DNA of 63,647 nt, the filler included, from Collodictyon triciliatum (lineage: Eukaryota): the NCBI GenBank assembly GCA_043381765.1. It is 17 parts of 17 records of this genome, joined end to end, with 100 filler letters (N's around TTAATTAATTAA, not from the genome) between each part and the next. Parts side by side here need not be neighbours in the genome. Positions count along the whole stretch, not along the records: positions 56,970 to 60,657 come from JBHJMP010006990.1; 16 more parts are not named here. The stretch is one strand, 5' to 3'. Position numbers and translations under genes: made by a program. Under the pieces are notes generated by a model. It was not told the origin of the DNA, ran no database searches, and worked only from the letters and a program-made list of their open reading frames with translations. This document shows positions 15,507-60,657 of the stretch, one piece after another; the stretch's first letter is position 1, and every line of letters starts with the position of its first letter.

Positions 15507-17262
15507 TTAGATGGTGGATTGGTAGCTTCCACCGCTGCCGCCGCCAGTCATGCGCCCAAAGAGCTCCTTGGTCTTGTTCCAGCTGTAGACGCAGCCGTCC
15601 TGGGGAAGGTGTTTGTGTCAGGAGAGAAAATATAAGATATATGTGGGATCCCAAGAGAAGAGCTGCATATGAACGTGAAGATGAAGATAAAGATAAAGAT
15701 CTTTGAATCGAATAAAGGAAAAAATGAAGCCAAAAATGAAGGCAAGACACCGACTTTGACGTAGCCAGGGAGGGTGCTCCAGAATTCGATGTTGGGGATG
15801 GACTCCTTCCCGCGGAGCTGCTTCTGGGTCATGTTGTAGGCAACACCGCCGCCGAGGTAGACGGCTCCGCCAACAAAGAAGCTGTATGTGGAGAAGCAGG
15901 GCTCCGGATCAGCCCTGGCACAAGGACGGGGACAGTGGAGAGCAGCTGGGAAAGAGGAAGAAGAAAGAGGAAGAAGAAAGAGGAAGAAGAAAGAGGAAGA
16001 AGAAAGAGGAAGAAGAAAGAAGAAGAAGAAAGAAGAAGAAAGAAGAAGAAAGAGGAAGAAAGAAGAAGAGGAAGAAAGAGGAAGAAAGAGGAAGAAGAAG
16101 GAGGAAGAAGGAGGAAGATGGCTGGCAGGGCACTTACATGATCAGGAAGACGGCTCCTCCACTGAGTCCTTCGTCGTCACCGTCATCGCCACCGCTTCCA
16201 CCGCCGCCACCACCACCACCACCACCACCGCCTGTCTTGCCGCACGCAGCGCTGGTCACCAGGCCAGTCACTTTGTAGGCTGCGCTGGTGTAGGCAACCT
16301 GCACAACAGCGTTACTTTGCGCTCTGCTGGTGTCTGGCTGCTGGCCTGGACAGGCACACAGAAAAAGAAAGAGGGAGAGGAAGAGAGGAAGAGAGGAAGA
16401 GAGGAAGAGAGGAAGAGAGGANNNNNNNNNNNNNNNNNNNNNNNNNNNNNNNNNNNNNNNNNNNNNNNNNNNNNNNNNNNNNNNNNNNNNNNNNNNNNNN
16501 NNNNNNNNNNNNNNNNNNNNNNNNNNNNNNNNNNNNNNNNNNNNNNNNNNNNNNNNNNNNNNNNNNNNNNNNNNNNNNNNNNNNNNNNNNNNNNNNNNNN
16601 NNNNNNNNNNNNNNNNNNNNNNNNNNNNNNNNNNNNNNNNNNNNNNNNNNNNNNNNNNNNNNNNNNNNNNNNNNNNNNNNNNNNNNNNNNNNNNNNNNNN
16701 NNNNNNNNNNNNNNNNNNNNNNNNNNNNNNNNNNNNNNNNNNNNNNNNNNNNAGGAAGGAAGGAAGGAAGGAAGGAAGGAAGGAAGGAAGGAAGGAAGGA
16801 AGCGCACCGTTCTTAAACTCAAAAGTAGGTGCGGCGGTCGAAGGGACCAAAGGAGCGCAGGTGCCACCGTTGGCCGGCTTCTCGAAGGACATGGAGCCAC
16901 TGTTGGACGGTGTTTGAGGAGGGGTCATAAGAAGCTTAAACTTAAATGGCTGAGAAGGGGCTGGAGTTGGGCTACCTGGCGCTGTTGCAGGTCGGGGTGA
17001 TGGCATCTGCGCAGAAGTTGAAGAAGTAGTCGTATAGGGAGCCTTCCTTCCCGTCGTAGAAGGATCTGAGGAGGTTGGGAGTGAGGTTGGGAGTGAGGTT
17101 GGGAGTCAGGGTCGCAGGCGGGACCTACCCGGTCTTCTTGAGGGGTGTGAGATCGTAGGTCTTGCCGTTGGGGGCGCTCCACGAGCACGACTGGCCTTGC
17201 ACGCTGCTCACGGCGAGGCACAGCAGGGCCACGAGGGCAAAGACGGACGTTGTGCGCGCCAT
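15507..17262 (-). CDS. ATG27 / cation-dependent mannose-6-phosphate receptor-like type I membrane protein; multi-exon, spans an N gap
   Basis: Signal peptide, then C.WSAPNGKTYDLTPL, YDYFFNFC, Gly linker, GLSGGAVFLI-FFVGGAVYLGGGVAYN..RGKESIPNIEFWSTLPGYVKDGC and a C-terminal YQSTI tail. Confidence 0.82.
15701..15724 (+). mobile_element. Ultra-short LINE 3'-end insertion in an intron; no clear TSD
   Basis: CTTTGAATCGAATAAAGGAAAAAA is identical to the terminus of the LINE copy at about 38438-38461. Confidence 0.65.
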
Positions 17263-18205
17263 CTGGGGGGGGAGGTCCTTGAGTGGCTTGTGGCTTGTGG
17301 TATGTCTGTGGGGCGGGGAGGCGTGGCGAGAGGGGTTGACAGGGGAGGGGGCTGGGGTTCTGGCTCTTGCGCAGAGTAGGCGCTCCTTGGCGTTGCCGTC
17401 TTGGTTGGGGCAGAGAGGGGAGGGGAAAGGGAAGGGAAAGGAGGCTGGAGGCTTGTGCCCGCGAGGTGGGCTGTCGCTGCCGAGCTGATTCATCTGTGGC
17501 AATCGCCACCCAAACACAACTCCTTCCCTTCGATCACAATCAGTGGCGCAGCCCACCCAAGTTAATCCTGTGCAACAGACTTTGACGGCTTAAGCTCTTG
17601 AATCATTGGGCAAATAACATGTCTGACTGTCCTATAAGAGGGCTTAGTTCGATTAAATAAGTTAGTTACAAAGATTCGTTGCTCTTGAAATATCGAGTTG
17701 ACATCTCGCCCACACGCGCTGTGACAATTGCTATGAGAAAAGACGATAGTAGACTTGCTGCTATCTAGTGCTAAGTTCAGGGCGCAGAACGAGTATATCC
17801 TATTTGTGGAAATTATATCACAAGAGTCCAAAAGACATAAAACTGCCTCATTTGCCCGAGTAAACTTATTTACTTATCTAACCTGTACCTCTATCTTACA
17901 TTGGATGGGCGCCAATGAGTTCGCTTGGCAGTACCTTCGACACTCCCCTCTAAATATTGTCGCACCTTACAAACGAACAAACTCACAAACAAACTCGGGA
18001 AATTTTTACTGTGTGCATATTAGAGTTCCAGGATGCATTTTGGCATTTGTTCCTCTTCATGATAAAAAAGATGTAAGGAGAGGCGCTTAAAGTTCGCCCC
18101 GAAATCTTTGATCTATCCTATACTTCGCGATGTGAATAAAATTTGGAGATCACACTTAAAGAGACAGACCGAGTAGAACAATAAATATATTCACAATATG
18201 AAGAC

Positions 18206-26620: not shown

Positions 26621-26693
<73 letters not shown>

Positions 26694-35031: not shown

Positions 35032-36957
35032 ATGAAAGCAGATGTCTTGAGCGGAGCCGAAGCCAAACGACAACCTACCAAATGTGCCTGGGAAAACAGC
35101 GATCGCAGCCTCGAACATGGGGGCGGAGTTACCAACCCACAAGCTGTGGTGTCAGCTTCGGTCATCTGGAAGGGGAAAGAGCACCAAGAAGCCGCTTCCA
35201 GCTCTGAGAAGAAGGGCAACAAACAGCTAGAAATGAATGACAATCAAAAAAGTCAAAATGATCGATCAAAGTCTTTAGTTGCGCTTGTCCTTTCCAAAGC
35301 TACAAAACTTGTTGAGAGAAGGAAAACTATCATGTCTGTCTTGATTAGAGACGACCGGTTGTTAGAAAGCATCCGCTCTGTGTGCAAAAGCAGAGCTACG
35401 GCACCTGTCATTAGTTTGTCTTGGTTTGTTTTCAATACACTACACATTCTCTTATGCTTTGGAATATCCCTAGTTCCAAGCAAAATATACCTCTCCCTTC
35501 AGCTTTTTTATACAATATGCTTTTGTATTTATCATTCAGTTTTCATTCGTGTCGATATTGTCAAAGAATTGGCTCGGTCATTCAACTTTTGGTTTACCTT
35601 ATGGAGCACGATTTCGTATCATGTTTGCTTTGTTTTTTTATGGGGACTGAGACTGGATGTATTTGCAGCCGTGATACACTCGCTTTCGAGTATTACTTTG
35701 ATGATACTGTACGATGCCAATATTGCTAAAGGTGTAAGGCTTTCCCAGATTTCTTATTTCTTGGGTAGTGTATCTTATTTGCCAATTATCTCAATTATGG
35801 TCTTAGAGCTTACAGACTTTCGTTACCGTAATGTTTATGCAAAATCAATAGACGTGGAGGTATTGGATATTAGAATTCAAGCCATCGATAACATTTCAAC
35901 CGTGATTATATACTTACTACGCATAAGCTATACTCATTTATTTCTGAAAACTCCAAACGCCGTTGCCTTTTTATCTGAGTACTACACCTTTGATAACTAT
36001 GTAAGCACCCCAATAAATTACAGCAGCTCTTTGGAAGATAGAAATGCAGCGCCAAGTTCTCATTCTCAAGCAGATGGTGCAAATCAATTTAGTGAAATAA
36101 TTAATGAAGATAACAGCCTCATTTCTTCTCATCTGAATACTTCACCCATAATTAACCCGGTATCTCCAGTCATGGATTCTCCTGATGCAACAAAAAGAAA
36201 TATTGTACATTGTGAGAGATATCTTGAGATAGGCATCCACGTATCTAAAATTTTACATTACGATACACACCAGACTATCTTTCACAAGCTGATTATTCCT
36301 TACTTTCCCAGGGTGGCAAAACTGATGAAGTCAAAGTACTATAACATTGTAGGCACTGCTATATGTTCTTGCACCATTTACATATCTATTCCTTCAGCTC
36401 TTGGCATTGATTTACCTGGTGCATTTGATTACACTATGCTGCTATTGTCCTATCTATCTATTTTTATCATGGCAGTCCAGATTATTTCGGCCTCTAACTT
36501 TATCATGCTCAAGTACATGCTACATTCGTTTGACTTTTGGTTTGTAATGTATTTGATATTCAAAATTTTTCTGTCCTCTGGGATATTGTGTGGGTGGGAT
36601 GAACGCGTTGTATTTTGGACTATGTATATATTCGCTATTTACTGGTGCATCATGATTGAATCATTTACGTTAAGATCAAGAAATGCATCGTATTTGTCAA
36701 TGTTTGGGTTCGTATGGTGTTTGCTAATGGTTACCCTATGCAAACTAAACATAGGAAATACATTCAATCATGACAAATACATAGAATGGAACGGAACTCA
36801 TATATTCTCACCCAAAATTGTTTTATCCTCTTCGACCTTTTCAGTTGCAATTTTTACCGCCCGGTTTTTCTACAGCCACTTAAAAAACAGGAATCGGCTA
36901 CTCTTCATTACTGAAAACCAGCAAGTATTACCTCTTCGACGCCATCTTATTTCTTGA
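35032..36957 (+). CDS. Uncharacterised multi-pass membrane protein with an internal two-fold duplication; single exon
   Basis: 641 aa ORF with two hydrophobic blocks, each containing K.L..SF[ND]FWF, separated by a Ser-rich loop. Confidence 0.8.
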   Translation: MKADVLSGAEAKRQPTKCAWENSDRSLEHGGGVTNPQAVVSASVIWKGKEHQEAASSSEKKGNKQLEMNDNQKSQNDRSKSLVALVLSKATKLVERRKTIMSVLIRDDRLLESIRSVCKSRATAPVISLSWFVFNTLHILLCFGISLVPSKIYLSLQLFYTICFCIYHSVFIRVDIVKELARSFNFWFTLWSTISYHVCFVFLWGLRLDVFAAVIHSLSSITLMILYDANIAKGVRLSQISYFLGSVSYLPIISIMVLELTDFRYRNVYAKSIDVEVLDIRIQAIDNISTVIIYLLRISYTHLFLKTPNAVAFLSEYYTFDNYVSTPINYSSSLEDRNAAPSSHSQADGANQFSEIINEDNSLISSHLNTSPIINPVSPVMDSPDATKRNIVHCERYLEIGIHVSKILHYDTHQTIFHKLIIPYFPRVAKLMKSKYYNIVGTAICSCTIYISIPSALGIDLPGAFDYTMLLLSYLSIFIMAVQIISASNFIMLKYMLHSFDFWFVMYLIFKIFLSSGILCGWDERVVFWTMYIFAIYWCIMIESFTLRSRNASYLSMFGFVWCLLMVTLCKLNIGNTFNHDKYIEWNGTHIFSPKIVLSSSTFSVAIFTARFFYSHLKNRNRLLFITENQQVLPLRRHLIS

Positions 36958-41965: not shown

Positions 41966-42040
<75 letters not shown>

Positions 42041-49384: not shown

Positions 49385-50733
49385 AATTGGACACGAATGT
49401 CCCCATGCTTTTCAATTAAATACCCTTGGAAAGTATTGTAAGTGTTGGGATATTTAATTGGGTCTAACTCTCGTGGCAAGTCAGGGCGCATAATTATATC
49501 TTTGACGTATCTTTTCTTTTCATCAGCAAACCAGTTTATTAAGAAACTTTTTCCATCAGGAACACGTAAGTGCGAATATCTCATATTAGCATCCTGGTGG
49601 TTCCATTGATGAAGAGTAAAATCGTCTTTAATCATCATACATCGACCCATGAATTCAAAATGAGTCTTTTCAAATGACTCTTTTGTTATATTATACCATT
49701 GTTCCCAAACCCTGTCCCTATAAGCAATATACACCATAGTAAACAAGAATTTAAAATCTTTTTCCGACAATACTTGTTTGAGCATTGTAAGTAGCGTTCT
49801 AAATGTAACTGGGTGTTTAGACTTTGGGGCCTTTTGTAACTGGCTTAATTTTTCAAGTCGTTCTTTGGTACTTGACTCTTGAGAATCTGGCAACTGGGCA
49901 CAAACTTTTAACCAGGTCTCTTGCAAATTATCAACATTTGCATTGACTAAAATAAACCCATACTTGACCCAACTATCGTAATCTTGTGGAAGTTTTTTAA
50001 AATATTCTTGTTGCAACATTTTATCAAAAAGCTCCTCAGTAAAAATTCTTTCTTGTAAAGAAGTAGTAGTGGTTTTTACTTTGTCTGCAATCATAGGACA
50101 AATAGTAGACTCAACATTTTCAGGTAACGTTTGTTCAATGGTGCGTTTCTTTGACTTTACCAAATGTGAAATGCTGGAAAAATCAAAGTCAGATATTTTG
50201 TTTTTAAACATTTTATCTTCACGCTCCCAGATGTTCTTTGTATACTTTATGATATCAACATCTGGCATTCCTTCACCAAACACCTTGGTACCTTCCATTG
50301 ACTTTTGAAAATCTTTAATTTTTACATAGATATGAAAGCCCTTGTTGTTACCTCGTGTCCAGCACATCGAATTGTTGATTGTTGGGACATTTAAAATTTG
50401 CCCAAGTTGATTAGGGTCATTTATCTCTTCAGAATCACAATCAATACAAACAAGGTCGGGAACATACTTTAGATAAAGTGACGCAACTCTAAAACACTTA
50501 TCTTTCTTTTCCTCTCGATTTACTCTTCGTTTAAGATATGTACACCAAGTCGTATACATAGTTTTACTCTTTTCTTTATACGCTTCTAACTCATTTAATG
50601 GGCAGTCGTTCTTCTCAATGATAGTATGCTTTTTACCATTTTCTAAATAGTAATGAGCATAGGCATATGGGATTTGATTTGATACTATGAATTCAATAGT
50701 TTGCATTTTTTCTTCCATTATCTGATCGTTCAT
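49385..50733 (-). CDS. Viral AEP primase(-polymerase) with PriCT-2 and the start of a D5/SF3 helicase region; 3' partial
   Basis: AEP motifs LVCIDCD, GNNKGFHIYV and VDII; PriCT-2-like YDSWVKYGFILVN; then FEKTHF..FLINWFADEKKRY..RP..TYNTFQGY, typical of the region preceding D5-like helicases. Confidence 0.75.
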
Positions 50734-50933
50734 ACTCTACCTTAGAAATTTGTTTTTAACTTAGCAATTATACTATATTATCTATTATATTATATATATT
50801 ATCTTATTAGATAGGTTAAAAATGTAAATTGCTATGGAAAGAGGAAGATTTTTAATACAGTGTATTGAAGTTATAATTCCTATAGGAACCTAGTTTTGGG
50901 TAGCAAGCGACCCGGGACCCAGCGAAAATCAAT

Positions 50934-51137
50934 TCAATCAAATGTTAGAGTCAACTTGTTGGTACCATTCTCAACTAGCATTCTAAACAGATACTTTAAC
51001 TTTTTTCTTTTTGCGTATTTCTCGAGGTAATAAATATGGTTGAGCATGTCGTCGTAGTCTGAAAAGTGTTCCTTGGAAAAAAACAACTGCTCTCCTACAG
51101 TGTTATCATTCAAAGTGTAAATGAGCAGAGTGTACAT
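50934..51137 (-). CDS. Small conserved viral protein (67 aa, C-terminus KLTLTFD)
   Basis: Resembles 58801-58965 in element B; ATG at 51137 is preceded by TTTTCT-N10. Confidence 0.6.
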   Translation of the reverse strand: MYTLLIYTLNDNTVGEQLFFSKEHFSDYDDMLNHIYYLEKYAKRKKLKYLFRMLVENGTNKLTLTFD

Positions 51138-51158
51138 AAATTTTCTGAGAAAATATAT
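51138..51158. promoter_or_regulatory. Putative bidirectional viral promoter ATTTTCT-G-AGAAAAT between divergent ATGs
   Basis: Quasi-palindrome supplying TTTTCT to both the small ORF (10 nt spacer) and the ATPase (12 nt spacer). Confidence 0.55.
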
Positions 51159-51881
51159 ATGCAAAGCAAACGAGTGTCCAACATTAAAATAAAACCACTG
51201 ACTCAGCCTCCTAAGGGTAAAAATTTTGGGATTCCGTTTCCATTGCCGGATATTTCCACGCGAAACTTTATAATGGGAGTGCTCGGACCCACAGGCTCAA
51301 GTAAAACCACATTGTACGCAAATTTAATTCGCAAGCACTACTTTGAAGTTTTCAATAAAATATATTTCTGTTCACCCAATGTCACGGATGAAGGGAAAGT
51401 GTATGATCGGTCGCTGGATTCAATAGAGTTTGCCGAGGAACGAGTTTTTCCAACAATTAATAACGAGGTTGCAAATTATATCAAAGAAGATTGCGAGAAC
51501 GACGAGGACTTTAAAAAAGAAGATTTTCGTGCGTTGCTTATAATAGATGATTTGGCAAATGAGCTCAAAGCGGTTAAGCATACTGAACTAACGAAATTAA
51601 TTCTAAAGTCCAGGCACTTGCATTTGTCAATCATTATGATATCGCACAAGTTTACATATTTCCAACGAATCCATCGCACCAACTTTACGCATTTTATCAT
51701 GTACCGGTCAAAGTCGAAAGCCGAGATAAAAACAATATATGACGATATCATTGACCTGTCTGAGGAGAAGTTCCAGGAGCTTTATGAATATGCAACCGCA
51801 GAAAAATACAATTTTCTTTATGTGATTTGCAATTCCAACCCCCAACAATACTTTAAAAATTTTGAAGAGGAGTTAACTTAG
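51159..51881 (+). CDS. A32-like (FtsK/HerA) DNA packaging ATPase
   Basis: FIMGVLGPTGSSKTT (Walker A variant), FNKIYFCSP, LLIIDD (Walker B), SRH arginine finger, RTN and C-terminal YNFLYV..YFKNF. Confidence 0.9.
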   Translation: MQSKRVSNIKIKPLTQPPKGKNFGIPFPLPDISTRNFIMGVLGPTGSSKTTLYANLIRKHYFEVFNKIYFCSPNVTDEGKVYDRSLDSIEFAEERVFPTINNEVANYIKEDCENDEDFKKEDFRALLIIDDLANELKAVKHTELTKLILKSRHLHLSIIMISHKFTYFQRIHRTNFTHFIMYRSKSKAEIKTIYDDIIDLSEEKFQELYEYATAEKYNFLYVICNSNPQQYFKNFEEELT

Positions 51882-51901
51882 AATTTTTTATTTGTAATGA
51901 T

Positions 51902-52312
51902 ATGGTATTCACACGTAGAAGCTTGAAGAAATTTTTCAAAGGTGCAGTTAAAGTCGTACGGAAGGGAATGAATGTCGGAGAAAAAGTTGTTAATGCCGTC
52001 GATAAAGCCACCGGGGGCGGGCTGCGGGACCTCGCTCGGACGGCAACGGGCGGACTGTCAGAACAGGCGCTGAAGGTGTACAATGCAAACAAAGGGCACG
52101 TGAAAAAGGGACTCGACTTGGCTGAAGGCAAAAAGGGTGCTACTGTTGCAGGTCTAGTCGAAGGCACTAAATTCCAAAAGCCATTTGAAAAAGGTGCTGA
52201 ACAATTGAGAAAATACGACCCTGTAATTCGAAAAGCTGGTCAACAAAACGAATCCCTGGGAAAAGTAATTAATACGCACGGGGACAACATTCGAAATAAA
52301 ATAGGTTACTAA
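51902..52312 (+). CDS. Basic Gly/Lys-rich viral protein with N-terminal amphipathic helix; candidate core or membrane-lytic protein
   Basis: SLKKFFKGAVKVVRKG and ATGGG; lies between the ATPase and the major capsid gene. Confidence 0.65.
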   Translation: MVFTRRSLKKFFKGAVKVVRKGMNVGEKVVNAVDKATGGGLRDLARTATGGLSEQALKVYNANKGHVKKGLDLAEGKKGATVAGLVEGTKFQKPFEKGAEQLRKYDPVIRKAGQQNESLGKVINTHGDNIRNKIGY

Positions 52313-52338
52313 GCGAAAATTATTTTCTTTTTAAAAAT

Positions 52339-53076
52339 ATGGATTCACTACCCGAAGAACTGCAATTTAGAAATATCTCATCCAAGAAAAAAACAATCCT
52401 TGAAAAGCAACAGCGCCAGGTCCTGCCCAGCAATGGAACTGAGCAGACTGCCAATTTTTCGTCAGGGCCGCAGATCGTGTTTAGAGTGCCTATAGACAAC
52501 GAGTGGAGTATTCAAATGGACTCAGCTCATATCATAGCGGATTTGACTGTTAAGGGGTTGTCTAATGAAGACTCATATAATAATCTTAAAAGAACACAAA
52601 TAGATATAGATGCGGGTGTTAAACTTCCAATTCTTGCTCCCTGTGAGAGTTATGAAAGTTTTATTTATCGTATTGCCGTTTATCTCAATGGTAGTGAGCT
52701 TGAGCGTATAGATAATTACAGTTACCTTGAGACTTTTAAACATAACTGGTGTAATAATCAGAATTGGGTCAATCTTATGTCAGGTGGAATGGGATTGGGT
52801 CAATCTATTTTAGAAAAATCCAAATTACTGTTAGGTGGACTGGCTACTGATGCAACCAGTTCAAATACTATTCAAATAGGATTTCCACTTCGTTACTTGG
52901 GGTTGATGAATATAAAGACACTTTTGCCGGCTTACTTACTGGGTCCCAATTCTCTTGAAATTCGTATTTGGTTGGCACCAGCCTCTGAATGTTTTACATA
53001 TGGTTCTATAACCAATACTGCAAATAATAATTATCGATACATAAATTGGACACCTAACACAGCCAACGCTATTAGC
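52339..53076 (+). CDS. PLV-type double jelly-roll major capsid protein; 3' partial
   Basis: LPEELQF..RQVLPSNG..F.SGPQIVFRVP, ESFIYRIAVYLNGSELERIDNYSYL and FPL..LGLMN..TLLPAYLL..LEIRIWLAP follow the pattern of the first jelly roll of PLV capsids; adjacent to an A32 ATPase. Confidence 0.82.
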
Positions 53077-56969: not shown

Positions 56970-58457
56970 CTTCTCACCAAATACCTCATTTAGAGATGAG
57001 TGTGTGCCGCCGTATTGCTTGCCCAGAACACCCTGGATATACAGCTTATGAAAAAAAGATGTCTTACCAGTGCCTCCTTTGTTGTTTCGGAATATCATCA
57101 TCTTGCCAATTCGATAATGCGGATGGAATATGATTTTGGCTAAATACTGCATCACATATTTCAGTGACGCAGGATTGCCAGCGCACAGATACTGGGACAA
57201 CTGCTTATAGTTCATACTCTGTTTCCAGATAGCATAATCATCTGCTGTCACTGAGCTGCGAATTTGATTACAATACCCCCACCAGTCAGTTTTTTGTATC
57301 GCATTTAACTCTGGAAAATACTTTTCGAACTTGAACCCTTTAAAATAATTGTAAGCTCGTGGATTGTAATAGTTGGTAAACATGTTGTATGGCATAAAGT
57401 CGAAATACTTGTAGCGCCGTTCGGGACATAAATTTCTCTGTACATGTTTCCAGTACTTGTCTCCAAACTCCTCACAATAAGAACCTGGATTGTCTATGGG
57501 TTCGGCCTTGCGAGAGTTGTCTTCATGTTCATAAAACAACTTTCCAAGTATCATAAAGTGTTCAAGAGCAAACTTTGTGATACACAGGCCATCTTATTCT
57601 TTTTCTTTATCAGGCTCTGGCTCGAAAGTCGATTGAATAGCTTTACTCTCAAATTCTAGGGCGTACCCGGTATGCTCACGTATGTATTCAGACAACTTGA
57701 CATTCAGTTCTGTTCTGTATTGACTTTTGTTGACATACAGTCCGTCAAACACATAGACACTAACATGAACACTGTTTTGTCGCAAAAAATCGATAGCCAG
57801 TTGCATCACTTTTAATTCCTCTGTCTGCAAATAGTAACTCAACGTGCTATAAATGCGATTGCTGTGTTCGTATAGAGCGTTGGTGTCTTTTTTAAACTTT
57901 ACGTTGTGCCACTCCTTACACTTTTCGTATACGTTACCGGCTAGGACTAGCATCTCTTCTCCAAGGGTTTTAGTAAACTCGTCGCCCTGAACCCATTTGT
58001 TGCCATATGCAATGCTCAAATACAGCTTCTTGGCTTCTTTGTGTGACATGTTAAAATCCTTCATCGTTTTATGGATGATCTGCTCACGGTCCTCAACATA
58101 TGTCTTTATCGCAGTGTGGGGCAGATCCCACTTCCTGGCCAAATCCAAGCTTAAGCAATAGTGGCAATTCTTGATGTCCAGGTTAATGTGTGTGTCACAC
58201 AACAAGAATTGACGCACGGGTTTTGGAAGCTTTAACACTGAAACTGATTTATGATACACCCTTCCAATTCCAATCTTTTGCAAGTACTCGGTGTGCTCAT
58301 ATTTCACAGTCAAACGATACGTATCGTCGTCTGGTGCTGATAAGCTCATCTTGCGTATAACGCCTAATATGCCTTTGGTCGGCTTATCAATCTTATCACG
58401 CGGTTGCTTCATGAGAAGCGCCACTTTCTTGACGTCGATGTGCTCAACTAGTTCCAT
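56970..58457 (-). pseudogene. TVpol (PolA-like primase/polymerase) fused to SF3 helicase, split by one in-frame TAA at 57594-57596; 3' partial
   Basis: GRVY, LPKPVR, motif A LDIKNCH, motif B AKKLYLSIAYG and motif C VFDGLYV; the same frame continues EKE*DGLC into YLAKIIFHP..GKMMIF..GGTGKTSF (Walker A). Confidence 0.8.
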
Positions 58458-58513
58458 TGTAGTACTAAGATACACTCTTATTACGAAATGTCTTTAACTG
58501 TGTATTTTGTGCA

Positions 58514-58761
58514 CTCCAGAAGAAAATGGGCATTCGGGTGTTCCCTTGCAAATGTCCCTTGCAAATGTCCCCTTTTAGGGCCCTTCCAAAACTATTTTTA
58601 ATTTGACCCTACCCTAGAATATTTGGGTAGGGTAGGGTCTATTTTTCCATCTACTTTCTATATTTTGGGGGTTGAACAAGTAAGGATGAACATAGGATAA
58701 ACATAGAGGTACAAGACTGAAAGAAGTAAGGAGACATGCCAGTGCCCATTTTCTTCTGGAG
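58514..58761. repeat. 19-bp perfect inverted repeat enclosing a tandem 13-mer and a hairpin
   Basis: CTCCAGAAGAAAATGGGCA (58514-58532) and TGCCCATTTTCTTCTGGAG (58743-58761); CCCTTGCAAATGT twice; GACCCTACCCT..AGGGTAGGGTC (58605-58639). Confidence 0.85.
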
Positions 58762-58800
58762 GATGAACAGGACTTAAACAGGGGTTGTGCAGTTCTCCCG

Positions 58801-58965
58801 TTAATCAAAAATGACCTTGACCGGCCCTTCTATGATACCGTACATATGCGGCCCCTTCTTCTTTCTGCTCTTTTTCCTCAATGCCTCCAGCTTATCAAAG
58901 TATTCTTTCAGTTCCTCAAAAGTAGAAAAGAGCAGTTCACCGTCCGTGGTATATAGTCGTAGCAT
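58801..58965 (-). CDS. Small conserved viral protein (54 aa, C-terminus VKVIFD)
   Basis: Resembles 50934-51137; ATG is preceded by TATCT-N10. Confidence 0.6.
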   Translation of the reverse strand: MLRLYTTDGELLFSTFEELKEYFDKLEALRKKSRKKKGPHMYGIIEGPVKVIFD

Positions 58966-58981
58966 ATCTAAGACTAGATAT

Positions 58982-59703
58982 TTAAAAAAGGATCTCTTCC
59001 GCAAAGTTCTTGTAAGCTTTGATTCTGCGGGGTACCATCAAGTTGACGTAGAGAAAGCAATAGGGGTCTGCGGTGGCAAAATCAAATACCTGGTCAAAGA
59101 GTTTCTGATCGAGGTTTGTCATTTCATTGAGGGCTTCCCGTTCGTGTTTGTTGTCGGTATAGAAAGCAACGAGGTGGGAGGCGTTTTGCCGTACCTTGGG
59201 GTTGAACAATCGAATGGCGTGACCCACTACGATCATAGAAAGTCTGAAATGACGGTGCTGCAACATTTTCTTGAGCAGGGTCTTACTAGGGCGCTCGAAA
59301 GCGGTTCCCAGGTCGTCTACCACGAGAAGGTAAGCATTGTCCTTGAACTCGGGGTCACCGGTTATGTCTTTTGTGACTTGTTCAAAGATTTCCTCGTTAA
59401 AGTCCTCATACATGCGGCTCTTGTGAAATTTGACACCCTCGTATGAAGAATCGTGTATTTCTCCTCCGGAAATATTACTGGAGCAAAAATATACCTTGTC
59501 GAATATCTGGTGGTACATTTCTCGCTTACCCAGCAAATTACTGATCAGCGTCGTTTTACCGCTAGCGACTTCTGCAGAGATCAACATTCAGAAGGGTCTA
59601 TCACTCTTTGCGTCCGGCAATATCTCCAATATCACTTCGCGCTTGTTTTTTTGACGGTTTTTAGTGGGGCAACCTCAACGTTACTTACTTTCTTGCTTTC
59701 CAT
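58982..59703 (-). pseudogene. A32-like packaging ATPase with a frameshift (A7 run, 59646-59652) and an in-frame TGA (59588-59590)
   Basis: N-terminus MESKKVSN aligns with MQSKRVSN of element A; LPD..RPF*MLISAEVASGKTT, LLVVDD, HRH, RQN and YCFLYV..YKNF. Confidence 0.85.
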
Positions 59704-59709
59704 ACAGTA

Positions 59710-60036
59710 TTAACGAAATAAAAGATCATTGTCGTACGAGAGTTCCCGCACCTGGGCCTTGTCTACTGTTTCCTTAATTCTGCGCTTCTCGATTTTTCTA
59801 GCCTCTTCCTTTGTGAGATATTGTTTGATCAAGGACACGTCGTGCTGTAACGAAGAATAGTCGTGAATGGGTTTTTTGACAGCCTCGTATTGCTTGACCG
59901 TTTGAACGATTTCCTTGTTCTTCTTTTTTGCTTCTGTTGCTTTAGGTTGAATTTTGGCGAGGTGGGCTCTCTGCTTTTCTGATGCTACGCGTTTCTTTTT
60001 TGGTTTCTCAATGGTATTTATTTCCGAATCACTCAT
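59710..60036 (-). CDS. Basic coiled-coil viral protein
   Basis: 108 aa ORF with KPKKKRVASEKQRAHLAK; preceded by TTTTCT-N10-ATG; packed between ATPase and penton. Confidence 0.65.
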   Translation of the reverse strand: MSDSEINTIEKPKKKRVASEKQRAHLAKIQPKATEAKKKNKEIVQTVKQYEAVKKPIHDYSSLQHDVSLIKQYLTKEEARKIEKRRIKETVDKAQVRELSYDNDLLFR

Positions 60037-60069
60037 ATGAATCCATAGAAAATAATTTCTGGCAAGAGT
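60037..60069. promoter_or_regulatory. Putative bidirectional viral promoter AGAAA-ATAA-TTTCT between divergent ATGs
   Basis: TTTCT lies 10 nt before the ATG at 60036 (minus) and 9 nt before the ATG at 60070 (plus). Confidence 0.55.
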
Positions 60070-60657
60070 ATGGACAAAGCGTTTTACATTTATGTTGATT
60101 CCGAAAACCGAGAAAGCGGAAGTATCGCAGACTTTAATTTCGCAACGACACAGAACAGGTACGTGTCGAGTAAAGCAAAAATCGGATTAGAGAGCATCCA
60201 GATACCGAATGCCGTACACAATGTCACATCCGCCAACAACGAGTTATCCTTCCTTTGCCAAGTCGGAGCAGACAGCCCCGTTTCATACAATGTGTCACTT
60301 GAAACTGGATTACAAACCATCAATGAAATAGTCAGTGACATTAGAACAAAGATGAACGCAGCCACGGCATCCCAGTCAGCTAATGCGGTTGTTTCAGTTT
60401 CATTTCTTACCGGCAAACAGAAGATTGCTATCAAAGGAGACGGAGCATCAATCTCATATCAATTGTTTGTGAATTCGTCGACGTGCCGGGACCTAATTGG
60501 GCTGACGGCCAATCTATCATTCAATACGTCTTTTGTGGAGCTACAGAATACAGTCAATATTCGACCTTTTGATTATGTGTACCTGGTCAGCCCGAACATT
60601 CAGAGTTCGAGCTTTGCCAGCAACATAGGCGGCAATGGCATCATCGCAAAAATACCG
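60070..60657 (+). CDS. Minor capsid protein (penton, single jelly roll); 3' partial
   Basis: IYVDSENRESGSIADF, IGLESIQIPNAVHNVTSANN, DLIGL, VNIRPFDYVYL and IIAKIP match the PLV/virophage penton pattern. Confidence 0.85.

Follow-up and report, generated by a model that had tools for sequence, protein, structure and literature searches.

The described systems closest to the element reported here are viruses that encode TVpol-S3H, a protein with an N-terminal mini family A DNA polymerase (TVpol) and a C-terminal D5-type superfamily 3 (SF3) helicase. As far as the excerpted literature goes, these systems comprise Sputnik V13, OLV25, YSLV1, PgVV, PLV-YSL1, PLV-RED1 and endogenous polinton-like viruses (PLVs) of Rhodomonas, Tetraselmis and Bathycoccus. 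In the available excerpts, the fusion is described as widespread in endogenous PLVs of cryptophytes (PMC12220804), as belonging to a set of three replication genes that are interchangeable among Tetraselmis elements (PMC9356565) and as occurring alongside tyrosine recombinases or DDE transposases in elements of prasinophytes (PMC10675990). Fusions of PolA and SF3 are termed particularly common in a 2026 preprint. Published work predicts that the TVpol family acts as a primase-polymerase. The copy considered here, element B, occupies positions 56970-60657 of a window of 63,647 nucleotides (nt), that is, the whole stretch of DNA analyzed, from the Collodictyon triciliatum assembly GCA_043381765.1. 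Rather than a continuous piece of genome, the window is a chain of 17 small contigs joined by N44-TTAATTAATTAA-N44 spacers, and element B is exactly contig 16 of the 17, with a length of 3688 nt and a GC content of 0.42.

Element B comes from the interior of a small double-stranded DNA virus genome, of which it covers 3.7 kilobases (kb); the virus belongs to the PLV and virophage assemblage and could be either a PLV or a strict virophage. Members of this assemblage combine a penton and ATPase module with a replicase in genomes of about 15-40 kb, and both the module and the replicase lie on this contig. Compared by description, element B resembles the TVpol-S3H viruses in joining an N-terminal mini family A polymerase to a C-terminal D5-type SF3 helicase and in encoding an A32-type ATPase and a penton. 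It differs from them in that its replicase is interrupted by a stop codon and its nearest relatives in IMG/VR are distant, with a replicase identity of 21-27% (20 loci on contigs of 5-27 kb). On balance, we favor the explanation that element B is a recently disabled, probably endogenous and decaying copy of a PLV of about 17 kb, located in a fragmented eukaryotic assembly.

TVpol-S3H fusions and endogenous copies of them have already been described by the thousand, and the element is not unexpected to a specialist. What it adds is modest: an uncharacterized clade whose records from named sources all read 'hypothetical protein' and whose closest IMG/VR relative reaches 27% identity, an rve integrase in one relative and a freshly broken copy.

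Relatives of the element

Along the minus strand, contig 16 presents first the penton gene, which points the opposite way, then the genes for a basic protein of 108 amino acids (aa) and the packaging ATPase, a 54-aa open reading frame (ORF), a putative control region of 343 nt and finally the replicase. A scan of JGI metagenome contigs returned 4 loci. The locus L021 (4807 nt) is colinear with all 3688 nt of element B at 88.9% identity, and its genes are all intact, encoding a penton of 256 aa, a basic protein of 109 aa, an ATPase of 240 aa, the small ORF and a replicase of 762 aa. The locus L023 (6179 nt) has a replicase that is 52% identical and preserves the order of basic protein, ATPase and replicase. 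L023 also encodes an rve integrase with a C-terminal AT-hook (4784-6037, minus strand; PF00665, 42.4 bits), which lies near the replicase gene on the opposite strand. Because this relative has an integrase, the lineage can probably integrate into host chromosomes. The pairing of the fusion with rve in L023 departs from the excerpted accounts of TVpol-S3H elements, in which the fusion is accompanied by tyrosine recombinases or DDE transposases (PMC10675990) or by no integrase (PMC9356565).

More distant relatives give hints of the size and content of complete genomes. The replicase and penton proteins P0007, P0192, P0208 and P0209, from the clade that is 50-55% identical, recur on contigs of 16,905-17,215 nt from several sources, which suggests that the complete genome is about 17 kb. 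In the IMG/VR locus L008 (18 kb; 1-18048), the replicase, the penton (33 bits to the penton profile), an unassigned 471-aa ORF and the ATPase are consecutive, and two collagen-repeat proteins, a GT61 glycosyltransferase and a methyltransferase are encoded as well. A scan of IMG/VR with the single replicase sequence gave no pattern match, and scans of the same database with the penton alignment and with the L021 ATPase returned no relatives.

The replicase

The replicase frame of element B extends on the minus strand from an ATG at 58457 to the end of the contig at 56970. Its 496 codons are interrupted once, by a TAA at codon 288 that lies in frame and separates two regions:

57597-58457, minus strand: TVpol-type minimal family A polymerase domain, 287 aa, from the ATG at 58457 to the codon before the TAA; identified by AlphaFold2 model, Foldseek, VIA-align and invariant residues
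56970-57593, minus strand: D5-type SF3 helicase region, N-terminal 208 aa, cut by the contig end; identified by full-length alignment to fused homologues

A word-indexed search of 5.8 billion proteins yielded 10 replicase homologues at E ≤ 0.001 among 2514 candidates. Each of the 10 is a single fusion protein of 732-782 aa that covers 100% of the query (48-94% identity, E ≤ 2.5e-142), and the polymerase-like and helicase parts form one protein throughout the alignment of these homologues. In the window copy, the TAA at codon 288 divides this frame in two. In the most similar homologue, P0003 (94% identical), a tyrosine occupies the position of the TAA, and all three members of its 90% cluster, the nearest, have lengths of 760-762 aa. 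When 1.84 billion cluster representatives were searched exhaustively with HMMER, the polymerase domain gave 1428 matches at E ≤ 0.001, of which 148 had E ≤ 1e-10 and one had E ≤ 1e-30. Because of the E-values of the 10 replicase homologues and the 1428 representatives matched by the polymerase domain, the finding lies far beyond chance.

The N-terminal 287 aa are, according to their structural model, a minimal family A polymerase fold consisting of the palm and fingers core. An alignment of 56 rows, the window copy and 55 of about 160 homologues chosen by rank and to cover short forms, has G65, R66, D94, K143, E214, D238 and G239 as invariant residues, and the window copy retains all of them. 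The AlphaFold2 model of the domain has a predicted local distance difference test score (pLDDT) of 94.9 and a predicted template modeling score (pTM) of 0.91. In this model, D94 is at the end of a strand, K143 is in a helix and D238-G239 are at the turn of a hairpin. This layout, with an invariant aspartate, lysine and aspartate in these places as in family A polymerases, fits polymerase motifs A, B and C, and the three residues would be equivalent to those of the solved enzymes. Family A polymerases possess two acidic residues in the third motif; in the window polymerase this motif is FDG.

Comparison with solved structures supports the same assignment. Foldseek found 152 matches in the PDB at E ≤ 0.001, and every match listed is a family A DNA polymerase (best E 3e-6). 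VIA-align, which re-examined the 995 chains ranked highest by Foldseek and is not a separate search, placed the polymerase domain of human Pol theta at Z 15.8, with a root-mean-square deviation (rmsd) of 3.9 Å over 260 of the 287 residues, T7 DNA polymerase at Z 14.3 and Klenow at Z 13.9 over chain residues 537-926; all 50 rows listed are family A polymerases. Overall, the core fold is shared with Pol theta, Klenow, Bst, Taq and T7 DNA polymerase at Z 13-16 over 250-262 of the 287 residues. In contrast to these enzymes, the domain has about 290 residues instead of about 390 or more, lacks an exonuclease domain and shows 9-14% identity. The high-confidence model of this 287-residue core offers a target for asking how little of the family A fold suffices for priming and synthesis.

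Searches by sequence were less informative for the polymerase part. Pfam gave no DNA_pol_A hit for the window polymerase, a PDB sequence search with the 10-row replicase profile gave chance-level hits, and nothing was matched in phage records by tblastn with the polymerase domain. In the Protein Atlas, the clusters nearest to the domain are unnamed viral proteins, and the nearest cluster that bears a family, DNA_pol_A at 0.82, serves as a lead.

For the helicase part, the Walker A motif GGTGKT is located at 57077-57060, which corresponds to residues 461-466 of the read-through protein, where it follows a D5_N-like region, and it is invariant in the family. The remainder of the helicase core, with Walker B and motif C, would lie beyond the contig end and is found in the L021 protein. 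The L021 helicase homologue, which is 94% identical, matches PF19263 with 47 bits and a VapE-like domain with 29 bits. A profile made from the 56-row alignment matched primase-helicases in the PDB, with 6k9c at 1.8e-29 and both C962R of African swine fever virus (ASFV) and 7ola at about 1e-17. The helicase part also has a weak match to a PHROG DNA primase (E 0.0045).

The initial annotation had described this locus as a PolA-type polymerase and a D5-like helicase in one frame and had spoken of a read-through protein. A family A palm fold, the absence of which would have contradicted that description, is what the model, Foldseek and VIA-align all return, and the union of a TVpol-type polymerase and an SF3 helicase in a single frame is borne out by the folds, the profile matches and the fused relatives. 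The stop itself is a private nonsense codon and not a trait of the family.

Disabling lesions and selection

Three disabling changes distinguish element B from its relatives, as would be found in an endogenous viral element. One of them is compared below with element A, the second viral contig of the window (49385-53076).

57594-57596, minus strand: TAA in frame at codon 288, within the polymerase-helicase linker; TAT (Tyr) in L021
59588-59590, minus strand: in-frame TGA immediately ahead of the Met codon with which the ATPase core begins; TGG (Trp) in L021, Leu in L023 and Ile in element A
59646-59652, minus strand: run of seven A (A7; T7 on the plus strand) where the relatives have A8, a 1-nt deletion seen by pairwise alignment with L021

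The deletion in the A run shifts the ATPase frame after codon 19, and through the frameshift and the nonsense codon together the conserved N-terminal 39 residues of the ATPase are lost. In a global alignment with L021, this is the only frameshift among 8 insertions or deletions, of which 5 are intergenic and 2 are in-frame 3-nt changes in coding sequence. Contigs from the public sequencing runs X1, X4 and X5, which represent freshwater or lake-water metagenomes of three studies and are about 90-94% alike, were compared at the TAA and the A run, two of the three lesion sites. They give the base of TAT at 57594, and at the A run X4, X5 and one of the two X1 contigs have one more T than the window. 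On these sequence comparisons the three lesions are private to the window copy, because L021 is intact at all three sites, X1, X4 and X5 are intact at two, and the P0003 cluster has its full length.

Apart from these lesions, the genes bear the mark of constraint. Relative to L021, the ratio of nonsynonymous to synonymous substitution rates (dN/dS) is lowest in the ATPase core (0.055), the basic protein (0.06) and the penton (0.08) and reaches 0.15 in the polymerase and 0.20 in the helicase part. Nearly all of the divergence accrued under purifying selection, so the damage is either recent or an error. When replicase amino-acid changes were polarized with eight distant outgroups, 10 were private to the window copy and 3 to P0003, with 17 ambiguous (two-sided binomial p 0.09), which is a weak hint that the constraint on the replicase has been relaxed in the window copy.

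In intact relatives, the replicase would act as one protein of about 760 aa, in which the TVpol domain may prime DNA, extend it or do both, and the D5-type SF3 helicase would unwind it. Packaging of the genome into the capsid is the predicted task of the A32-type ATPase, and the penton would form the five-fold vertices of that capsid. In the window copy, the nonsense codon would part the polymerase from the helicase, and the ATPase would lack its N-terminus as a result of the frameshift and the stop.

State of the element

An endogenous and decaying copy has to be weighed against several observations that speak against it. The assignment of the element depends on three genes and the relatives, since contig 16 lacks the double jelly-roll major capsid protein that characterizes PLVs and virophages, the cysteine protease and virophage-type capsid protein of strict virophages, and an integrase; a major capsid gene is absent from L021 and L023 too, and no protease was seen in either. 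Among the sequencing runs, none carries more than 0.13 of the contig's words, and no RNA run is among those listed. A junction between virus and host is also absent, as all 3688 nt align to the viral L021, and the low dN/dS is equally compatible with a free, replicating virus. Moreover, the frameshift is a change in homopolymer length, a classic type of sequencing or assembly error. Finally, all three lesions are outside the catalytic cores, in the linker and in the N-terminal extension of the ATPase, and each core keeps a start codon; the probability of such a placement is about 2e-4 if lesions fall at random, with zones that were defined post hoc.

The strongest competitor is a free PLV or virophage, episomal or borne in particles, that was co-sequenced or binned with the eukaryote, with lesions that are errors or that belong to a minority defective genome taken as the consensus. 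Such a virus would account for a contig that is viral throughout, for the dN/dS of 0.05-0.20 and for the homopolymer change. It would also agree with the assembly of close relatives from freshwater and lake water in three studies and with the recurrence of relatives on contigs of 16.9-17.2 kb, a pattern like that of complete virus genomes. Furthermore, run X2 holds three pieces (206, 83 and 151 nt) that are identical to the window; these cover no lesion site, and X2 may be the source sample rather than an independent one. However, two of the three lesions are substitutions to a stop, which a short-read consensus seldom invents. Consensus base errors are rare in short-read scaffolding, and N gaps within the scaffolds suggest that this type of assembly was used. 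Three disabling changes that arose independently within 3.3 kb of coding sequence are also many for error, and L021, X1, X4 and X5 are all intact at the lesion sites at which they were compared. We therefore regard a free virus as a serious explanation that is nevertheless clearly less probable than an endogenous copy.

A variant that is still active and in which the lesions are tolerated or selected appears improbable. Such a variant would make the 287-aa TVpol as a separate protein, resume translation at Met 302 for the helicase and begin an ATPase core of 201 aa at the ATG after the TGA, and it might replicate with the aid of intact sister copies or a giant virus. The placement of the lesions in the inter-domain linker and the ATPase extension would be explained, as would the open frame with an ATG in each catalytic core, the retention of all invariant polymerase residues and the low dN/dS. 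Stand-alone forms may exist: among the best 150 of the 1428 representatives matched by the polymerase domain, 127 have at least 674 aa and 23 have fewer than 550 aa. These short forms, however, may be cuts at contig ends, and a split replicase is found in none of the 10 relatives. The N-terminal extension of the ATPase is conserved between elements A and B, whose ATPases are 31% identical overall, and this argues that the extension matters. The zones in which the lesions seem to cluster were also drawn after the lesions had been seen.

Read-through of the stops, by a deviant genetic code with TAA, TGA or both as sense codons or by programmed recoding, is highly improbable even though the nearest relative aligns Tyr at the TAA and Trp at the TGA and slippage can occur in an A7 run, for three genes of the same contig (ATPase, basic protein and 54-aa ORF) terminate in TAA, genes of L021 and L023 end in both TAA and TGA, the relatives need no recoding, a single ordinary nonsense step leads from Tyr to TAA or from Trp to TGA, and host-like ORFs of 605 and 461 aa in the window are open under the standard code; a deviant code was rejected because TAA and TGA terminate genes of this lineage.

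If element B is indeed an endogenous copy in decay, as we infer, it would testify that a virus of about 17 kb with an integrase has recently entered a eukaryotic genome, and it would serve as a dated case of how decay begins.

Packaging ATPase and neighboring proteins

The genes between the control region and the penton are all on the minus strand:

58982-59587, minus strand: A32-type (FtsK-HerA) packaging ATPase core, 201 aa and a TAA stop; Walker A ends in SGKT and Walker B is LLVVDD; Pfam Pox_A32
59635-59703, minus strand: orphaned first 23 codons of the ATPase, in another frame; ATG at 59703, and the first 19 residues equal the N-terminus of the L021 ATPase
59710-60036, minus strand: lysine-rich 108-aa protein; 92% identical to L021 820-1149 and found in L023 at 89 bits
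58801-58965, minus strand: 54-aa ORF downstream of the ATPase; 78% identical to the L021 ORF at 1895-2059

The ATPase is the one of five contig ORFs with a Pfam match above the cut-off. Its core scores 29.1 bits with Pox_A32 against a cut-off of 22.8, while the intact L021 protein scores 35.5 bits, and a match to the terminase large subunit was obtained in PHROGs (E 7.9e-9). The core is 94% identical to the intact 240-aa ATPase of L021. The orphaned N-terminus also resembles the N-terminus of the ATPase from element A. The lysine-rich protein has no Pfam family above the cut-off, and a role as a DNA-binding or core protein is a guess. The 54-aa ORF is likewise without a Pfam family.

Penton

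The penton gene is the only one of the contig on the plus strand, and it reaches the contig end:

60070-60657, plus strand: first 196 aa of the penton (vertex, single jelly-roll) protein, which is truncated by the contig end; the full-length counterpart in L021 (256 aa) is 91% identical

The 196-aa window ORF gave no Pfam or PHROG match, and its homologues, 10 in one search and 29 in a later one, are all unnamed. The fold was examined on the full-length 256-aa homologue from L021, with an alignment of 28 rows, and not on the truncated window copy. The model is of middling confidence (pLDDT 80.9, pTM 0.56), and it has 43 matches in the PDB at E ≤ 0.001. The best solved matches are the pentons of mavirus and Sputnik (6g42, 6g41 and 3j26 chain N), with probability 1.00 and E-values from 4.8e-9 for mavirus 6g42 (six rows) to 1.2e-7 for Sputnik 3j26_N; the TM-scores with these pentons are 0.44-0.52, the identity is 7-16% and the rmsd is 7-10 Å. 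Adenovirus penton bases and the penton of PBCV-1 were matched as well. In BFVD, 57 matches had E ≤ 0.001, and these include two proteins of Tetraselmis viridis virus S1, the minor capsid proteins of mavirus and Qinghai Lake virophage, adomavirus LO5 and minor capsid proteins of giant viruses. An A32 ATPase and a penton-like ORF had both been proposed for this contig. The former is recovered by Pox_A32 above the cut-off with Walker A and Walker B in place, and the latter agrees with the structural matches of its close homologue in L021. The frameshift and the stop in the ATPase gene had gone unnoticed in the initial annotation.

Putative control region and mosaic divergence

An intergenic stretch with repeats precedes the replicase gene:

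58458-58800, no strand: intergenic region upstream of the replicase gene, with an inverted repeat, a hairpin and a tandem duplication

Specifically, the inverted repeat has arms of 34 nt (58514-58547 and 58728-58761) with 180 nt between them, and the hairpin at 58600-58644 has arms of 17 nt. The arms of the repeat and the hairpin are retained in L021 despite a regional identity of 79%, while the 13-nt tandem duplication at 58542-58567 is present in the window only. The repeats upstream of the replicase may be a promoter or an origin.

The synonymous divergence from L021 is 0.18 in the replicase and 0.58-0.86 in the ATPase, the basic protein and the penton (Fisher p 5e-16 on synonymous differences), and the nucleotide identity to L021 steps from 0.77 to 0.93 near 58466. 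This mosaic pattern suggests a recent exchange of the replicase module with a break near 58466.

Relationship to element A

Element A carries intact genes for an A32-type ATPase (54 bits), a replicase cut at 449 aa, a 136-aa ORF and a cut ORF of 246 aa. Its ATPase is the point of similarity with element B, as the two proteins align at E 2e-34 and have the N-terminal extension in common. In contrast, the replicases have no N-terminal domain in common (best BLASTP E 0.11 over 15 residues). The N-terminal region of the A replicase scores 15 bits with PriCT_2, below the cut-off, and is without a TVpol domain; a PDB sequence search with this replicase gave 0 hits. The 246-aa ORF is not similar to the B penton (E 0.15), and the gene order of A differs from that of B.

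The initial annotation regarded the two contigs as distinct members of one lineage rather than as pieces of the same genome. Two elements are indeed indicated because there are two packaging ATPases and two replicases, and their separation is reinforced by the differing gene orders and by L021 and L023, which repeat the order of B without any gene of the A type. The common lineage is upheld in part. The ATPases are mutual best matches among the loci compared, and the A ATPase scores 131 bits to those of L021 and L023 against at most 35 bits to those of the IMG/VR loci, but nothing beyond the ATPase links the two elements. Elements A and B may nevertheless have been inserted side by side in one host genome. 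No further copies of the genes of B or A were found by tblastn and blastn in the rest of the window.

The window and its other contigs

The contigs of the window are ordered by falling length from 3710 to 3688 nt, with a final piece of 2890 nt. Several besides the viral ones look eukaryotic. One encodes the 605-aa host-like protein, a GT92 glycosyltransferase whose nearest Atlas clusters are 100% eukaryotic, and others encode NHL, FG-GAP and LRR repeat proteins. A protein-kinase match on one contig is confined to profile positions 74-126 and looks, from this span, like a single exon. Rfam gave 0 matches in the whole window, and NCBIfam gave 0 families for 6 proteins.

A 641-aa open frame at 35032-36957 on the plus strand has no match in Pfam or NCBIfam or in a sequence search of the PDB (0 hits). 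Two runs of exactly 72 A, at 26621-26692 and 41966-42037, may be an assembly artefact; one of them opens its contig, whereas 166 nt precede the other in the next contig but three. Between 11420 and 13100, a stretch of about 1 kb with 74% GC is embedded in a contig that otherwise has 30% GC, and this stretch, which is without a Pfam family, contains long overlapping open frames on both strands.

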